A stretch of DNA of 64,000 nucleotides. Source: an uncultured Chloroflexia bacterium. GTDB lineage: Bacteria; Chloroflexota; Limnocylindria; Limnocylindrales; CSP1-4. The notes under the pieces were generated by a model. It did no database searches and was not told the DNA's origin. It worked only from the letters and a program-made list of their open reading frames with translations. Shown here piece by piece: positions 9,716-64,000 of the stretch (position 1 is the first letter of the stretch; every line of letters starts with the position of its first letter). The DNA lies in assembly GCA_963746845.1 (NCBI GenBank), contig CAVVCZ010000004.1:832001-896000 (forward strand), given 5' to 3'. The position numbers and the translations under genes are program-made.

Positions 9716-9754
9716 GGCGCCTCCTCGCTGCTGCCAAGTTCCCGGTGGGCCGAC

Positions 9755-9781
9755 AAAAAGAAACGTGGGGGTCACCCACGT
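9755..9781 (-). promoter_or_regulatory. rimP-leader-like terminator/attenuator hairpin upstream of nusA
   Basis: Minus strand ACGTGGG-tgacc-CCCACGT followed by TTCTTTTT, downstream of a TATACT -10 at 9810-9815; resembles the GTGGG..CCCAC+U-tract leader of rimP-nusA operons. Confidence 0.65.
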
Positions 9782-9986
9782 CACGGAGCGGCCGTTCAGT
9801 TCGGGCCGAAGTATACACCCGGGAGCGTGGATCGTCCTCGACGCGCAGGGTCCGGCCCCGTGCCCGGAACGGCTCAAATGACAGCCAAGCGAGCCTTCGG
9901 CCGGGTCGGCGCCCGCGAGTGGTCCAACGGCCGTCCCGACCACGCGTCCGAGCCGAATTCGGGCCCCCGACGGTCCGTGGGTTGCC

Positions 9987-11282
9987 TTACCCCGTCGTGG
10001 CTGGCGTTTGAGCGGTTTCCGCGATCGGCCCGGAATCCGAGCCGTTCGCCGTGCCCGGATAGCGCCGGTCGACGTACGCCTCGAGGATGTCGATGAACTC
10101 GGCGACCAGCCCGTCGCCGCGGAGCGTCCGATCGAGTCTGCCGTCGATGAACACCGGCGCGACCGGATCCTCGAAGGTGCCCGGGAGCGAGATCCCGATA
10201 TCGGCGTGCTTGCTCTCCCCGGGGCCGTTCACCACGCAGCCCATGACCGCGACCCGCATCTCCTCGACCCCCGGGTGCGTCTCCGCCCAGGCCGGCATCC
10301 GCTCCTTCAGGTGGCCCTGGATCTGCTGGGCCATCTCCTGGAAGAACGTCGAGGTCGTCCGGCCGCAGCCCGGGCACGCGCTGACCTGGGGCAGGAACGA
10401 GCGCAGCCCCATCGACTGGAGGACCTGCTGGGCGATCTCGACCTCGCGCTCGCGTCCGGCCCCGGGCTCCGGGGTCAGCGAGACGCGGATCGTGTCGCCG
10501 ATCCCCTCGTTGAGCAGGATCGCCAGCCCCGCCGTCGAGGCGACGATCCCCTTGTCACCCATCCCCGCCTCGGTCAGCCCGAGGTGGAGCGGGTAGTCGC
10601 TCCGGGTGGCGAGGGAGCGGTAGACGTCGATCAGGTCGCGGACCTGCGAGACCTTCGCGCTGATGATGATCCGGTCGTGCCCGAGCCCGGTCTCTTCGGC
10701 GAGCTCGGCCGAGCGCATCGCCGATTCGATCATCGCCTCGATCATCACGTCGCGGGCGTCCCGCGCCTGCGCGGCGGCGGCGTTCGCGTTCATGAGCTCG
10801 GTCAGGAGTTGCTGATCGAGCGAGCCCCAGTTCACGCCGATCCGAACCGGCTTGTCGTTCTCGATCGCCACCCGGACGATCGTCGCGAAATGCTCGTCGT
10901 GACGCTTCGCTCCGACGTTGCCCGGGTTGATCCGGTACTTCGCGAGCGCCTTCGCCATCGCCGGGTACTCGACCAGGAGCTTGTGGCCGTTGTAGTGGAA
11001 GTCGCCGATCACCGGCACGTCCACGCCCAGGTTGTCCCGGAGCTTGTCCATCATCGCGGGGACGGCCGCCGCGGCCTGCTCCGTGTTCACGGTGACCCGG
11101 ACGAGCTGCGACCCGGCGTGTGCCAGGCGTGCGACCTGGATCGCGGTCGCGTCCGGATCCGCGGTGTCGGTGTTGGTCATCGACTGGACGACGATCGGAT
11201 GGGCACTGCCGACGAGGACGCCGCCGACGTCGACACTCACGGTCGAGCGTCGACGCGGCCGGAGGGAGTCGCGGCTGGTCAT
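9987..11282 (-). CDS. ispG: (E)-4-hydroxy-3-methylbut-2-enyl-diphosphate synthase
   Basis: [62 protein letters not shown]. Confidence 0.97.
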
Positions 11283-60183: not shown

Positions 60184-62013
60184 ATGCAGCGCTCGCAGGA
60201 GTCGCGGCCGCGGGCGAAGTCTCCCTTCGTCGCCGCGTTCCTCTCGCTCCTCTTCCCGGGTCTCGGACATGCCTATGCCGGCGCGTATCAGCGCGCCCTC
60301 GGCTTCGCGGCGCCGCTGGTCCTCGTCATGGCCCTCGTGGCCGGCCTCCTGCTCCGGATGGACGCGCCGCAGCTGATTGCGTTCGTCCTGACCCCGTGGG
60401 TCCTGCCGGGGGTCTTCGTGGTCAACCTCGTCCTGCTGATCTACCGGCTCGTCGCGATCGTCGATGCCTACCGCGTGACGATCTGGCTCAACGCCCTGGC
60501 CGCCAACGCCGGCGGACGCCTGGGCAAACCGCGGCTCGTGTTCCACCCGTTGTCGCTCGCGGGCCTGTTCGCCGTCCTGCTCGTGATGTCCGGCGCCCAC
60601 GTCGTCGTCGCCCGGTACGACCTGCTCGCGCTCGGCGCGCTCAACGATCCGTGCATCTTCGTCAGCGACCAGACGCCGGACACCTGCTCGGCCGATTCGT
60701 CGTCGCCGTCCGGCTCGGGCGCGGGCTCGAGCTCGGCGGGGCCGACCGATGAACCGGCCGACTCGCCGACGCCGACGGACACGCCCCCACCGATCCAGGG
60801 CTCGGACCTGCCGGACGCGACGATCCCGCCGTGGGACGGGACCGACCGCCTGAACATCCTGCTCATCGGCTCGGATCAGCGGCCCGGCGACGGGACCTAC
60901 AACACGGACACGCTGATCGTCGTCTCGATCGACCCGACGACCAAGCAGGTCGCGATGTTCAGCCTCCCGCGCGACTCGACGAACATCCCGCTGCCGCCCG
61001 GACCGTTGTCGAACGCGTATGGCGGCGTCTACGACCGGAAGATCAACTCGCTCTTCACCGCGACCCGCAACCGCGCCGACCTCGTTCCGGGCACGAGCCG
61101 GACGCGCGGCTACAACGCCCTGAAGATGGTCCTCGGCAACCTCTACCACCTCGACATCAAGTACTTCGTCGAGGTGAACTTCACGGGGTTCAAGCGGGTC
61201 GTCGACGCCATGGGCGGCGTGACGATCAACGTCCAGGTCCCGGTCCTCGACGACAACTACCCGAGCGACACGGGGCGGTCGGCGCGGGTCTACATCCCCG
61301 CCGGGATCCAGCACATGACCGGCGCCGAGGCGCTGGTGTACGCCCGGTCGCGGCACGGCTCGGACGATTTCGACCGCGGGGCTCGACAGCAGCGCGTTCT
61401 GACCTCGCTCCGGGAGCAGGCGAACGTGGGCCAGCTGATCCCGCGCATCCCGGACCTGCTCACCGCCCTGAAGTCGACCGTCAAGACGGACATCCCGCAG
61501 GACCAGCTGGCCAAGCTCGCCGGGCTCGCGAGCACCGTGGACACGAAGAACATCCGGTCGTACGTGTTCTCGTATCCGCGCTTCGGCTCGCAGGTCCTCG
61601 CCCCGATCTACAAGTACCTGCCCGACGTCACGAAGATCCGGAGCGCGGTCGCCAACGCGTTCAAGGTCGACCCGCAGCTCGAGGACACGCGGTCGGCGAT
61701 GGCCGACGAGAACGCGTCGATCTGGATCCTCGACGGCAGCGGCCGGGGCCAGGGCGCGAGCATGGTGGGGTATCTCGCCTACTACGGGCTGAGCGCATCC
61801 GCGCCGACCACCAAGCCGAAGACGACCGGCCTCAGCGGGACCCAGATCGTCGTGTACAACGGCGCCGAGACCGACCTGACCGACACGATCGCGTTCCTCG
61901 AGGACACGTTCAAGACGAAGGTCGTCCTGAAGGACGATCCGACGGTGCCCGTGGACATCGTCATCACGACGACGAGCAGCACCAAGACCCTGACGCCGCC
62001 GCCGACCAGCTAG
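60184..62013 (+). CDS. LCP (LytR-CpsA-Psr) family cell-wall glycopolymer ligase with N-terminal TM segments and a LytR_C-like domain
   Basis: LNILLIGSD.R, NTDTLIV, SLPRD, KINS, VDAMGGV, YARSRH..DDFDR..RQQ. Confidence 0.93.
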   Translation: MQRSQESRPRAKSPFVAAFLSLLFPGLGHAYAGAYQRALGFAAPLVLVMALVAGLLLRMDAPQLIAFVLTPWVLPGVFVVNLVLLIYRLVAIVDAYRVTIWLNALAANAGGRLGKPRLVFHPLSLAGLFAVLLVMSGAHVVVARYDLLALGALNDPCIFVSDQTPDTCSADSSSPSGSGAGSSSAGPTDEPADSPTPTDTPPPIQGSDLPDATIPPWDGTDRLNILLIGSDQRPGDGTYNTDTLIVVSIDPTTKQVAMFSLPRDSTNIPLPPGPLSNAYGGVYDRKINSLFTATRNRADLVPGTSRTRGYNALKMVLGNLYHLDIKYFVEVNFTGFKRVVDAMGGVTINVQVPVLDDNYPSDTGRSARVYIPAGIQHMTGAEALVYARSRHGSDDFDRGARQQRVLTSLREQANVGQLIPRIPDLLTALKSTVKTDIPQDQLAKLAGLASTVDTKNIRSYVFSYPRFGSQVLAPIYKYLPDVTKIRSAVANAFKVDPQLEDTRSAMADENASIWILDGSGRGQGASMVGYLAYYGLSASAPTTKPKTTGLSGTQIVVYNGAETDLTDTIAFLEDTFKTKVVLKDDPTVPVDIVITTTSSTKTLTPPPTS

Positions 62014-62329
62014 GGCGCCCCTTCGCGCGCGGCTCGCCCGCGCCGGACGGCGCTCTCTGCCGGCCGGGCAGCGTGACCCGACCTCGCCCCTACCTGGCCA
62101 TTCGTGCACCCAAGGCCCGTTAGGCGAGCTGGCGACGGGTCAGCGGCTCCTCGATCGGCCGGCGTCAGTCACGGACGGCTGACTCAGGGTCTAGCTGCGG
62201 CATCGAGGGGCTCGCTGAGTGCTCCAGCGGTCCCCTGGTGCAGATCTGATCAGTTTGGAGCCGTCAGCGTCGGGCTCGTAGCCACGGCGCGTGTCGCGAC
62301 CGGCGCCATCGAGCGACTCAGCGCCATGT

Positions 62330-62353
62330 TCGCAATGTGTCCGGCAATGTCAC
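62330..62353 (+). repeat. 24-bp direct-repeat site, copy A
   Basis: TCGCAATGTGTCCGGCAATGTCAC; 22/24 identical to copy B. Confidence 0.8.
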
Positions 62354-62405
62354 CGGGTGAAATGGCGCCCGACCAGGGATGTCGCGCCGCCCACCAGCTG
62401 TGGGT

Positions 62406-62732
62406 TCATTCCGGCGGCCGGAGAATCCAAGGGCTGATCGCGATGATTCCGATCGCGGCGACCGCAAGCAAGGTGAGAAGTAACGCGGCGATCCATCTCC
62501 TCGCGGTGCGAGCCTTCACGGTGAGGCCGGCGACGACTGTGCCGGCGGCCAGCCCGATTGCAATCGCGGCGTAAAGGCCGGTGTTCCCGATGCGTCCTGC
62601 TGGACCGAGGACCGCCTCAATCGCGCGGTGCGTCAGGAGATATGCGACTGTCCCAGCGAACGTCCCAACAAGCCAGCGCTGCCACGAGAGCCGAGCCGCT
62701 GCGGGCGCAGTGTCGCCCTCCTGATGGCCCAT
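62406..62732 (-). CDS. Small hypothetical membrane protein (about 3 TM segments)
   Basis: Hydrophobic 108-aa ORF; TACGAT -10 lies 6 nt before the ATG; codon usage is less GC3-biased than the core genes. Confidence 0.55.
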   Translation of the reverse strand: MGHQEGDTAPAAARLSWQRWLVGTFAGTVAYLLTHRAIEAVLGPAGRIGNTGLYAAIAIGLAAGTVVAGLTVKARTARRWIAALLLTLLAVAAIGIIAISPWILRPPE

Positions 62733-62837
62733 GTCAGCATCGTATGTCAACGTCACCGCCTGGAAGGTCCTCGGGCCACATCGCGTCCCTGACACCCAGC
62801 GTTCGCGAGTATCACTCGACGGCCTCCCGGTTGGTCA

Positions 62838-62848
62838 GTCGCAATGCG
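62838..62848 (+). repeat. Half-site of the 24-bp repeat (copy D)
   Basis: GTCGCAATGCG is identical to the left part of copy C; the right arm is absent. Confidence 0.5.
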
Positions 62849-62863
62849 GCGACGACCCGTGGA

Positions 62864-63304
62864 TCACGCCATCCGCTCGACCCACGCCGCGCGCCACGCT
62901 GGGGCTTCGAACGGCGGGGCGAAGTACCACGTCTCGCGATACACCTTGCCGTCTCGGAGCTGGATCAGAACCGAGAGGAACCAGGTGGAACCATCGGGGT
63001 AGACGCTCGTCCCATCGGCGAACCAGAAGTCACCGCTACCGACGACACGGTGGATCGTGTTCGCAGGAGTCAGGACCCACTCGTCCTTGCTTCCGACGAC
63101 GCGGACCGACAAGCCGCTCGGGCGCCCATCCGGCCAGTTCTCCATGATCGCCCGGTCGTTCGCGCTGCCTCGGATCCGCTCGCCCGACTGGGGCCACTCA
63201 ACCAACCAGTCCTCGTCACGCAAGGCGCCGGCCGAATCGTAATCATGCGCGGCCTGCGCTTCGACGTAGCGACGGACGATCTCCTCGTTTGACGGGTTCG
63301 CCAC
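62864..63304 (-). CDS. SnoaL-like / NTF2-fold protein
   Basis: EEIVRRY...EWPQSGERIRG...YPDG..W...IQLRDGKV.RET.YF..PFEAP.WRA.WVE. Confidence 0.85.
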   Translation of the reverse strand: MANPSNEEIVRRYVEAQAAHDYDSAGALRDEDWLVEWPQSGERIRGSANDRAIMENWPDGRPSGLSVRVVGSKDEWVLTPANTIHRVVGSGDFWFADGTSVYPDGSTWFLSVLIQLRDGKVYRETWYFAPPFEAPAWRAAWVERMA

Positions 63305-63395
63305 GTTCTCTCCCTCGGGTGCGTCGAGTCGCACCCATGATGGACCGGCCCGCGCGGTCGGGCCTCGTGTTGGGTCACACGAGGTGCTGTCGGCC

Positions 63396-63419
63396 TCGCA
63401 AAGCGTCCGGCAATGTCAC
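63396..63419 (+). repeat. 24-bp direct-repeat site, copy B
   Basis: TCGCAAAGCGTCCGGCAATGTCAC, followed by ATGG. Confidence 0.8.
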
Positions 63420-63437
63420 ATGGTCAGGCGGGGAGAC

Positions 63438-63894
63438 CTACTCCACAGGTCCGCGCCTTCACGGGACCAAGCTCGGGTCGCAGCATGGGCGAGATCAGCC
63501 TCCGCGGGCAGGCCGCCAAGGTCGCGTCCGGTGACCGAGCTCGAGCGGTGTTCCATCAGGACCCAGCCCGGCAGGTCCGGCGTCGCGCGTCTGGGTCGTG
63601 ACCGCTCATCGATGCGTAGCAATCGACCGCGCTGAAGGCGGCCTCGTAGGCGACGGCTCGGAGAAGCGTCGACGGCGGAAGGCGATGCGCCGGCGTTGCG
63701 AGTCGAGCCTCGCGCCGGCGGGAAACCGCCGGATGACCTCCTCGGTTCCGAAAGGATCGATGTCCCGGGGCCGATCGACCGAAGGAAGAGAAGCGGGCCG
63801 TGTGGGGCCGAGTTCGTCACGCGCAACTCGGACTGCAGCCCAGCCGGCCGGGTCGTGCACCAAGGTGGGCCGTTCGTCGAGTCAGCTCATCCAT
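63438..63894 (-). pseudogene. Multiply frameshifted small hypothetical gene
   Basis: CAGAAT -10 lies 7 nt before ATG 63894. Protein-like segments alternate between frames: MDELTRRT / LVHDPAGWAAVRVARDELG...DPFGTEEVIRRF / LLRAVAYEAAFSAV / PDLPGWVLME...TGRDLGGL / REGADLW. Confidence 0.45.
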
Positions 63895-63937
63895 GCCGGG
63901 CATTCTGCCGCCCTCAGTGAAGCAGTAGACGGCAACG

Positions 63938-63961
63938 TCGCAATGCGTACGCGAATGTCAC
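63938..63961 (+). repeat. 24-bp direct-repeat site, copy C
   Basis: TCGCAATGCGTACGCGAATGTCAC, followed by ATGG; 20/24 identical to each of A and B. Confidence 0.75.
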
Positions 63962-64000
63962 ATGGCCTTTGCGGGCGTTGTGTCGACTCGCGACGATCAG

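Follow-up and report, generated by a model that had tools for sequence, protein, structure and literature searches.

Towards the right-hand end of a 64,000-nucleotide (nt) stretch of a Chloroflexota metagenome-assembled genome (MAG) of the class Limnocylindria (G000:C4:832001-896000, hereafter the window; the G000 assembly comprises 3.56 Mb in 12 contigs and is 92% complete), we found a series of short units separated by direct copies of a conserved 28-nt site. Comparison of this array with its counterparts in relatives suggests that the units are mobile cassettes exchanged by site-specific recombination, by an enzyme yet to be found, and we put the probability of this reading at about 0.6. 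In the mechanism that we propose, each ~0.5-kb unit, usually with one accessory gene, would be bounded by T1-CGCWMAG-YGTKCGSS-AATGWCACYYGA28, and the window would contain one end of a small mobile-cassette array. A site-specific recombinase encoded away from the array would exchange strands in the central 8 nt of the site (positions 9-16), and units could therefore enter, leave or replace one another at any site, much as the cassettes of integrons do at attC and attI.

A conserved 28-nt site is repeated in one island of the genome

An earlier sequence-only reading of the window had proposed that units of one gene each, set off from one another by a direct repeat of 24 bp, form an array that is not an integron, and the core of this proposal is supported: the insertion of the island, the arrays of relatives, the breaks in homology and the reuse of units, all set out below, agree with it. 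We confirmed by pattern scan three direct copies of the 24-mer TCGCAAWGYGTMCGSSAATGTCAC on the + strand, at 62330, 63396 and 63938, with the reported pairwise identities of 20-22/24 (22/24, 20/24 and 20/24). The 24-mer had no match in 100 dinucleotide-preserving shuffles and, as had been stated for the window, no other copy was found with up to 4 mismatches in the rest of the window or of the genome; the reversed pattern gave 0 matches. A genome-wide scan with a position weight matrix (PWM), a check that had been suggested, added a fourth, degenerate copy. Built from 111 distinct instances in relatives, the PWM returned four sites in a single island of G000 and one weak match elsewhere (C2:19696, 16.4 bits), with 0 matches in the reversed-sequence control. 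The four sites are:

62330..62357, + strand: site 1 (28 nt), the outermost; exact pattern match, PWM 33.3 bits
62792..62819 (core 62792-62815), + strand: site 2, degenerate, ACACCCAGCGTTCGCGAGTATCAC, with 4 mismatches in the 24-nt core; PWM 20.7 bits
63396..63423, + strand: site 3; pattern match, PWM 37.7 bits
63938..63965, + strand: site 4; pattern match, PWM 34.4 bits

Genome-wide dispersal, of the kind shown by repetitive extragenic palindromic (REP) sequences or by the operators of a regulon, had been named as an outcome that would tell against an array, and it was not seen: the sites of G000 lie in the one island, apart from the single weak match. There is practically no chance that the three copies are a random match or a dispersed REP-like repeat unrelated to gene boundaries. 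Nothing beyond the shortness of the motif favours that explanation, which is refuted by the shuffles (0/100), by the reversed controls (0), by the lack of dispersal and by the hundreds of instances that lie between units.

Conservation extends beyond the 24 bp first given, as the conserved site is a contiguous, asymmetric block of 28 nt, TCGCWMAGYGTKCGSSAATGWCACYYGA, whose consensus over the 111 instances reads T-C-G-C-W-M-A-G-Y-G-T-K-C-G-S-S-A-A-T-G-W-C-A-C-Y-Y-G-A. Positions 1, 8, 10, 11, 13, 14, 17-20, 22-24 and 27 are near-invariant, and the variable positions 9, 12, 15 and 16 are flanked by two conserved arms that are unlike each other. The left end depends on lineage, with the forms TCGCAAWG, TCGCTCAG, TTGGCSAG, TCGCACGG and TCCSCGAG. 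We saw no excess folding in 68 sites taken with 60-nt flanks (mean minimum free energy -54.3 versus -52.9 kcal/mol for shuffles). Two candidate structures within the site were rejected: an internal CGC-NNN-GCG hairpin with covariation drew no support from mutual information, and a central palindrome was unsupported by covariation of positions 12 and 15.

Units and genes in the window

The sites delimit units of 462, 604 and 542 bp, followed by the start of a fourth unit:

62354..62815, - strand: unit 1 (462 bp), with a small membrane-protein-like open reading frame (ORF) at 62406-62732, its ATG preceded by TACGAT; from the ORF list, no Pfam family
62816..63419, - strand: unit 2 (604 bp), with a SnoaL/NTF2-like gene at 62864-63304, GTG start after GGGAGAG; Pfam SnoaL_2
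63420..63961, - strand: unit 3 (542 bp), decayed, with no convincing intact ORF by the ORF list and coding statistics; no Pfam family
63962..64000, - strand: start of unit 4, which runs to about G000:C4:896849, beyond the window
62838..62848, + strand: 11-nt 'half-site' GTCGCAATGCG, inside the SnoaL unit, in its conserved 3' tail, where relatives read GGTGCGGGGCG

The sequence-only reading had placed a unit boundary at this half-site. The sequence is present as described, but since it lies inside the 48-nt tail of the SnoaL unit it is no boundary, and the true one is the degenerate site 2 at 62792-62815. Of the spacings then given (509, 557 and 542 bp), the last stands, and the first two become 462 and 604 bp. 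The minus-strand SnoaL-like gene was recovered by Pfam, and hexamers resembling -10 elements can be picked out in the unit sequences. The expectation that the array would continue past 64000 failed, as no further full sites follow: there is one more unit, which ends in the half-site TCGCTCAGCGTGC at G000:C4:896836 (L004 6836). A homologue of the unit 4 ORF lies directly beside the array of another genome of the genus (L094).

Many other genomes have units that match the SnoaL unit (62816-63419) at 82-88% identity. The homology starts at 62816, the base after the core of site 2, and stops at site 3, at its CAC. In most genomes a second NTF2-like gene follows the SnoaL gene, and in one, two sites enclose the pair as a two-gene unit of 1036 bp. 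The unit of G000 is a truncated form of this two-gene unit, cut 48 nt past the stop codon, at the start of site 2. A second SnoaL paralogue of G000 (G000:C5:169131-169559) has 72% DNA identity over the ORF only and is without the site.

We also looked for the locus in public reads, where no run contained the stretch (the best share of sampled words was 0.14), and compared the contigs of four runs with L004:3900-7600. These contigs are short pieces identical to the window and in the existing order, one of them bridging 62506-62838 across site 2; they show no joints at any site, and neither an excision product nor an empty site among them, which says nothing either way on excision.

Co-oriented arrays occur in related genomes

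Using a strict pattern (up to 3 mismatches), we found the site in 22 of 201 genomes of the window's family, with a reversed control of 0 in every genome. With a less strict core pattern, allowing 2 mismatches and applied to genomes of at least 85% completeness, we obtained matches in 132/301 genomes of the class, a total that includes the unpublished G336 and is to be read against a control with a single match in about two dozen genomes; 83/164 genomes of the window's family were among those matched, and fewer in the other families. In a phylum-wide sample, genomes outside the class had single matches, apart from one with two, and multi-copy genomes were confined to the window's family. One genome of the same genus as G000, G037, which is 92% complete, has no copy.

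The arrays of relatives are co-oriented, like that of the window, with 9 sites in 4.2 kb in G105, 6 in 3.0 kb in G081 and 12 in 6.7 kb in G195. The first 80 metagenome loci retrieved with the core pattern hold 188 sites in arrays of up to 12, and neighbouring sites less than 3 kb apart share a strand in 102 of 105 pairs. Units have a median length of 536 bp (n=56, range 174-1710). Most of them hold one ORF, and the best ORF usually runs antiparallel to the site in the orientation given here, so that a unit read in gene orientation consists of a site, a short leader, an ORF, a short tail and the next site. Units of 174, 253 and 271 bp are too short for a gene and still carry their sites.

Arrays differ between close relatives, and units recur with different neighbours

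Variable cassette content among relatives had been put forward as a check, and we found that arrays do differ between near-identical genomes and contigs, with the breaks at the site. The array flanks of G081 and G105, two genomes of one genus, are 95.5% and 96.4% identical, and the arrays between them share the sites only. Their alignment breaks off within the first site, on the final base of its 24-nt core (CAC), and picks up again ~250-350 bp past the last site. Two metagenome contigs, L113 and L178, agree at 99.7% identity along 6674 bp and then diverge at a site, beyond which L173 keeps to the L113 version and L178 goes on with a 91.6%-identical copy of another unit. Single units recur in different settings: one left unit is common to four contigs, each with a different right neighbour, one right unit is common to three contigs, each with a different left side, and the SnoaL unit is present in at least 4 arrays. 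Among the metagenome contigs, none with an exact 24-nt flank plus site represented a strain variant of the G081 or G105 array, and the other members of this genus, at 66-79% identity, are too divergent for comparison at the level of units.

GC-rich inverted repeats of ~100 bp flank both of these arrays (L034 8955-9054 and 12547-12641; L033 8483-8581 and 13377-13473). We considered them as array ends and ruled this out by the copies found elsewhere in the G081 and G105 genomes; the repeats also occur at G081 C2:246111 and 249093 and in G427, and are a dispersed intergenic repeat.

Exchange appears to fall in the centre of the site

Two junctions show how the halves of a site segregate with their flanks. 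At the L113/L178 junction, the site carries the version of the left flank up to position 13 and that of the right flank from position 14 (markers 14, 21, 25 and 26). At the L122/L113 junction, markers 3 and 11 go with the left flank and markers 14, 21 and 23-26 with the right. The first sites of G081 and G105, which have a common left flank, have different bases at positions 9, 12, 15 and 16, and those of another pair, with a common right flank, at positions 3, 9, 12, 15 and 16. Over 12 flank-sharing pairs, the differences that conflict with the common flank concentrate at positions 9, 12, 15 and 16. SnoaL copies that stand alone, outside arrays, retain the site from position 1 to ~13 and run into unrelated sequence beyond; no convincing distal half-site was seen downstream of these copies.

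These patterns suggest that strands are exchanged within positions 9-16, between the unlike conserved arms, and we adopt an overlap of 8 nt as a working inference. A variable centre between unlike arms matches, by analogy, the layout of the core site of a tyrosine recombinase in which each arm has its own monomer, as in heterodimeric Xer-type systems. The units would recombine at the site through an enzyme acting there, probably a tyrosine recombinase, and may move by way of a circular form.

Points against a dedicated recombinase

Several observations weigh against cassette exchange by a dedicated enzyme. The first concern the site. It is not palindromic and its arms are not inverted repeats; the earlier parse into weakly inverted arms of ~11 bp around a 7-bp core gives way to unlike arms around an 8-nt exchange zone, positions 9-16. 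That zone was drawn from 12 informative pairs, some of them 80-95% identical in the shared flank, and positions 10, 11, 13 and 14 of the proposed overlap are near-invariant, which is unusual for a spacer; it is because of these few pairs and the four near-invariant positions that we hold the overlap to a working inference. In addition, 14 nt past the TCGC end, on the gene side, the base is A or T in 81/111 instances, mostly T, and TANNNT occurs at this +14 offset in 16/111, versus 0.14 per control offset. All compared genomes and contigs are MAGs or metagenome contigs, and many of the contigs may share related samples.

Further points concern the enzyme. The best match to the integron integrase IntI (TIGR02249) scored 84 bits against a cut-off of 265 in a search of five genomes, negative in all five. 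Pfam found no PF00589 protein among 66 + 148 + 115 ORFs in and around array loci, and the tyrosine recombinases of G000, G081, G105, G136 and G171 are all encoded far from the arrays. Serine recombinases were absent from G000, G037 and G081. The site also has little in common with dif. The family dif, CTTCCGATAA-N6-TTATGTCYG, is present as a single copy in all five genomes scanned (G000, G037, G081, G105 and G195), and the site has ATGTC and some further bases of its right arm in common with it (5-7 of 11 positions), and little of its left arm (3-4 of 10). The likeness to dif that the sequence-only reading had seen in both arms is weak. Its other statements on this subject were correct: there are no attC hairpins, given the lack of excess folding, and no recombinase is nearby, with no IntI and no adjacent PF00589 protein.

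The likely dif of G000 lies outside the window, 174 kb from the array:

G000:C4:720653-720679: likely dif of G000

In G081 dif is on a different contig from the array. The recognised recombinases of G081 are an XerC/XerD pair only, both on a contig other than that of the array, and in G000 the PF00589 matches beyond XerC/XerD are two partial ones. One Xer-type gene of G081 (G081:C3:855695-856211) matches in two frames, from a frameshift or an assembly indel. The ORFs that flank the arrays include scattered transposases (IS110, Mutator and rve) and two large serine recombinases. Mobile elements are often lost when MAGs are binned, which makes the absence of an enzyme from a bin weak evidence, and we consider an enzyme on an unbinned mobile element as possible as the host XerC/XerD.

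A regulatory role for the site

The T and TANNNT signal beyond the site hints at a promoter role. The site might thus be chiefly regulatory, an alternative-sigma promoter or shared operator before each gene, with the units shuffled by RecA-type recombination or template switching. We consider this unlikely, though several features fit it. Besides the +14 signal, the site always lies 5' of the ORF and on a fixed strand, it contains, as the sequence-only reading had pointed out, a direct repeat with 12-nt spacing (GCAAWG...SSAATG), genes for extracytoplasmic function (ECF) sigma factors lie in or beside units of L084, L089, L091, L099 and L151, and a dedicated recombinase was not found. Against it, neither the rest of G000 nor its core-gene promoters carry the site, and G037 does without any copy. 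The short units without a gene retain their sites, the distance from site to start codon varies (59 nt in unit 1, 91 nt in unit 2) and TA is found at a -10-like offset in only 18/111 copies. Some 28 conserved nt are also long for an operator, and the exchange points, few as the events are, are central and not spread over the repeat. ECF41-type promoters read TGTCACA-N16-CGTC; we tried this type as a candidate and rejected it, as TGTCAC is found on the strand opposite to the genes and has no conserved -10 partner.

A Rep and serine-recombinase module beside some arrays

At five loci, a Rep gene of the REP_ORF2-G2P family lies immediately past the final site and shares the strand of the sites: G195 (L098), L151, G118 (L095), G123 and G062. 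A large serine recombinase follows it in G195 and L151. The modules span L098 4485-6783 and L151 8342-10583, and in L095 the Rep gene is at 9723-10010; the G195 module sits after xseA-xseB, as an integrated element would. We read this module as a small integrative element able to carry an array, and not as proof of the cassette enzyme.

This arrangement raises a further explanation, in which the sites are nick and termination sites of a rolling-circle Rep or att-like sites of the large serine recombinase, the array is cargo of the element, and arrays without Rep are stranded remnants. It is favoured by the position of the module and by the direct repeats in one orientation, which rolling-circle initiation and termination would need. 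The distribution of Rep speaks the other way. It was found in only 11/201 genomes of the family, 4 of which showed no site, and the site-rich genomes other than G195 (G105, G081 and G171) are without it; in G000 there is neither a Rep nor a serine recombinase, nor a tblastn remnant of either. The site has no hairpin, and segregation at markers 9, 12, 15 and 16 does not fit the single 2-bp crossover of a serine recombinase. This explanation is accordingly quite improbable, more so than regulation, and exchange of cassettes by an enzyme encoded elsewhere remains our preferred reading.

Accessory genes carried by the units

In a first set of 42 unit ORFs, 10 had a Pfam match (E<=0.01) and 32 had none. 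The matched ORFs are SnoaL-type (3), SUFU, DUF4265, glyoxalase/bleomycin-resistance, spermidine synthase and PD40, together with HEAT_2 and DUF6176, both below their cut-offs. Further arrays add SMI1_KNR4/SUKH-1 (3), a second DUF4265, DUF6228 and GNAT acetyltransferases, as well as APH and AadA_C-type enzymes, a pentapeptide protein, cupins, methyltransferases and ECF sigma factors. Polymorphic toxin systems typically include SUKH, SUFU and NTF2-like proteins as immunity proteins; the remaining cargo, by analogy, resembles that of chromosomal integrons. Clusters of ECF sigma genes stand in or beside arrays at L084 2090-5223 and 9409-9975 and at L151 1410-1946, 3395-3886 and 6513-6998, and some of these genes appear to be inside units.

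A wider claim would be that Limnocylindria possess an undescribed integron analogue, in which XerC/XerD, or the enzyme of a Rep/serine-recombinase element, acts in trans on a 28-nt asymmetric site with an overlap of 8 nt, so that chromosomal arrays of immunity-type, resistance-type and unknown genes are built and reshuffled across the class. We offer this tentatively, as a possibility rather than an expectation.

The array as an insertion between LCP and ilvE

The island is 3.4 kb long, and all four sites of the window are inside it. On its left are the following:

60184..62013, + strand: LytR-CpsA-Psr (LCP) gene, left neighbour of the island; Pfam LytR_cpsA_psr, E 5e-32
62014..62329, no strand assigned: left part of the insertion, 316 bp, with no recognised gene; unmatched in the LCP-ilvE spacers of relatives, no Pfam family

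Homology with the other genomes of the genus stops at the stop codon of the LCP gene. On the right, unit 4 is followed by ~0.5 kb of other sequence and then by a class IV aminotransferase gene (ilvE-like, by Pfam), just past the end of the window. From the coordinates, the distance between LCP and ilvE is 24-380 bp in 12 genomes of the same genus, 1373 bp in one more and 3384 bp in G000. Because the two genes are near-adjacent in these relatives, the island is an insertion peculiar to G000. Its base composition is also distinct, with a GC content of ~66-69% compared with 71.5% for the contig, which agrees with the earlier remark that the region is less GC-rich.

In a search for the ancestral spacer, an alignment of the island with the spacers of G037 and G136, where the site is empty, gave no real match. 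Rfam and tRNA scans of the island gave nothing above noise. Outside the window, at the ilvE-side end of the island, is a 40-nt run of pure A/T (CTAAAAATTTTTATATAATATTTATAAAAATATG) at G000:C4:897060-897100 (L004 7060-7100). One public contig of 213 nt (run X3) joins L004 6702 to 6886 and 6915 to 7160, omitting this run; the skip points to variation in the population or else to a fault in the assembly. Hairpin repeats of the GATCGATCTCC type are found directly downstream of ilvE in G000 (L004 7250-7400; G000:C4:897250-897400), and at the corresponding place the G136 spacer (L038) has tandem repeats of ~60 nt.

Comparison with known systems

Integrons are the textbook route by which bacteria capture single-gene cassettes. 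The arrays described here share with integrons, and with clusters of attC sites lacking integron-integrases (CALINs), co-oriented units of ~0.5 kb that mostly hold one ORF, a conserved site at each boundary and an atypical composition. They also share content that varies between close relatives, units that recur in different arrays and some units without an ORF. The range of cargo is common to both (GNAT, glyoxalase, NTF2-like and many proteins of no known family), and like CALINs these arrays have no adjacent integrase. The differences from integrons lie in the enzyme and the site: there is no IntI, and we recognised no common Pc/attI platform. Integron attC sites are imperfect palindromes of 57-141 nt (RYYYAAC...GTTRRRY) that fold as single strands, whereas here conservation is limited to a contiguous 28-nt core of double-strand type, with no R''/L''-L'/R' palindrome and no excess folding.

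Xer-dependent elements, such as the integrative mobile elements exploiting Xer (IMEX; CTX and TLC) and the pdif modules of Acinetobacter, integrate at dif or carry alternately inverted sites. They resemble the present arrays in unlike arms around a centre of 6-8 nt, in the tandem accumulation of elements and, on our reading, in a recombinase encoded elsewhere. Our arrays differ in lying far from dif and in having sites that are direct in 102/105 pairs and not alternately inverted; the left arm of the site shows little likeness to an XerC arm, and the match on the XerD side is ATGTC and a few bases. Another partial parallel is with PeSL, the 'mobile regulatory cassettes' found in the genomes of T4-type phages, each of which combines a promoter with a stem-loop and recombines by homology. 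There, too, small genes are each preceded by a conserved repeat and shuffle at the repeats; our arrays differ in having no stem-loop, in residing in bacterial chromosomes and in an exchange apparently confined to a central zone.

Our literature searches returned no description of such arrays for Limnocylindria, for Chloroflexota cassettes or for integron-like immunity-gene arrays. The one array system besides integrons that we came upon in print is rAID-1 of gut Bacteroidales, which is described as an array of immunity-type genes with a repeated intergenic sequence and skewed GC, and with an XerD-like tyrosine recombinase at its 5' end (Ross et al., bioRxiv 10.1101/471110). Our arrays resemble rAID-1 to some extent: their units include SUKH-1 (3 ORFs), SUFU and DUF4265 (2 ORFs) genes and their GC content is below that of the host, but most ORFs are of no family or are other accessory genes. 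They differ in having no adjacent XerD-like recombinase, in belonging to another phylum and in a cargo broader than immunity genes.

If the units are cassettes, the 28-nt site could serve as a tag with which to harvest a flexible gene pool from metagenomes, including candidate immunity and antibiotic-modifying genes, and it would pose the question of which enzyme acts on a non-palindromic site of this length. Beside integrons and rAID-1, the arrays would be a third array system, with another type of site and no linked integrase, in an uncultured class common in soils, and cassette capture would have evolved more than once.

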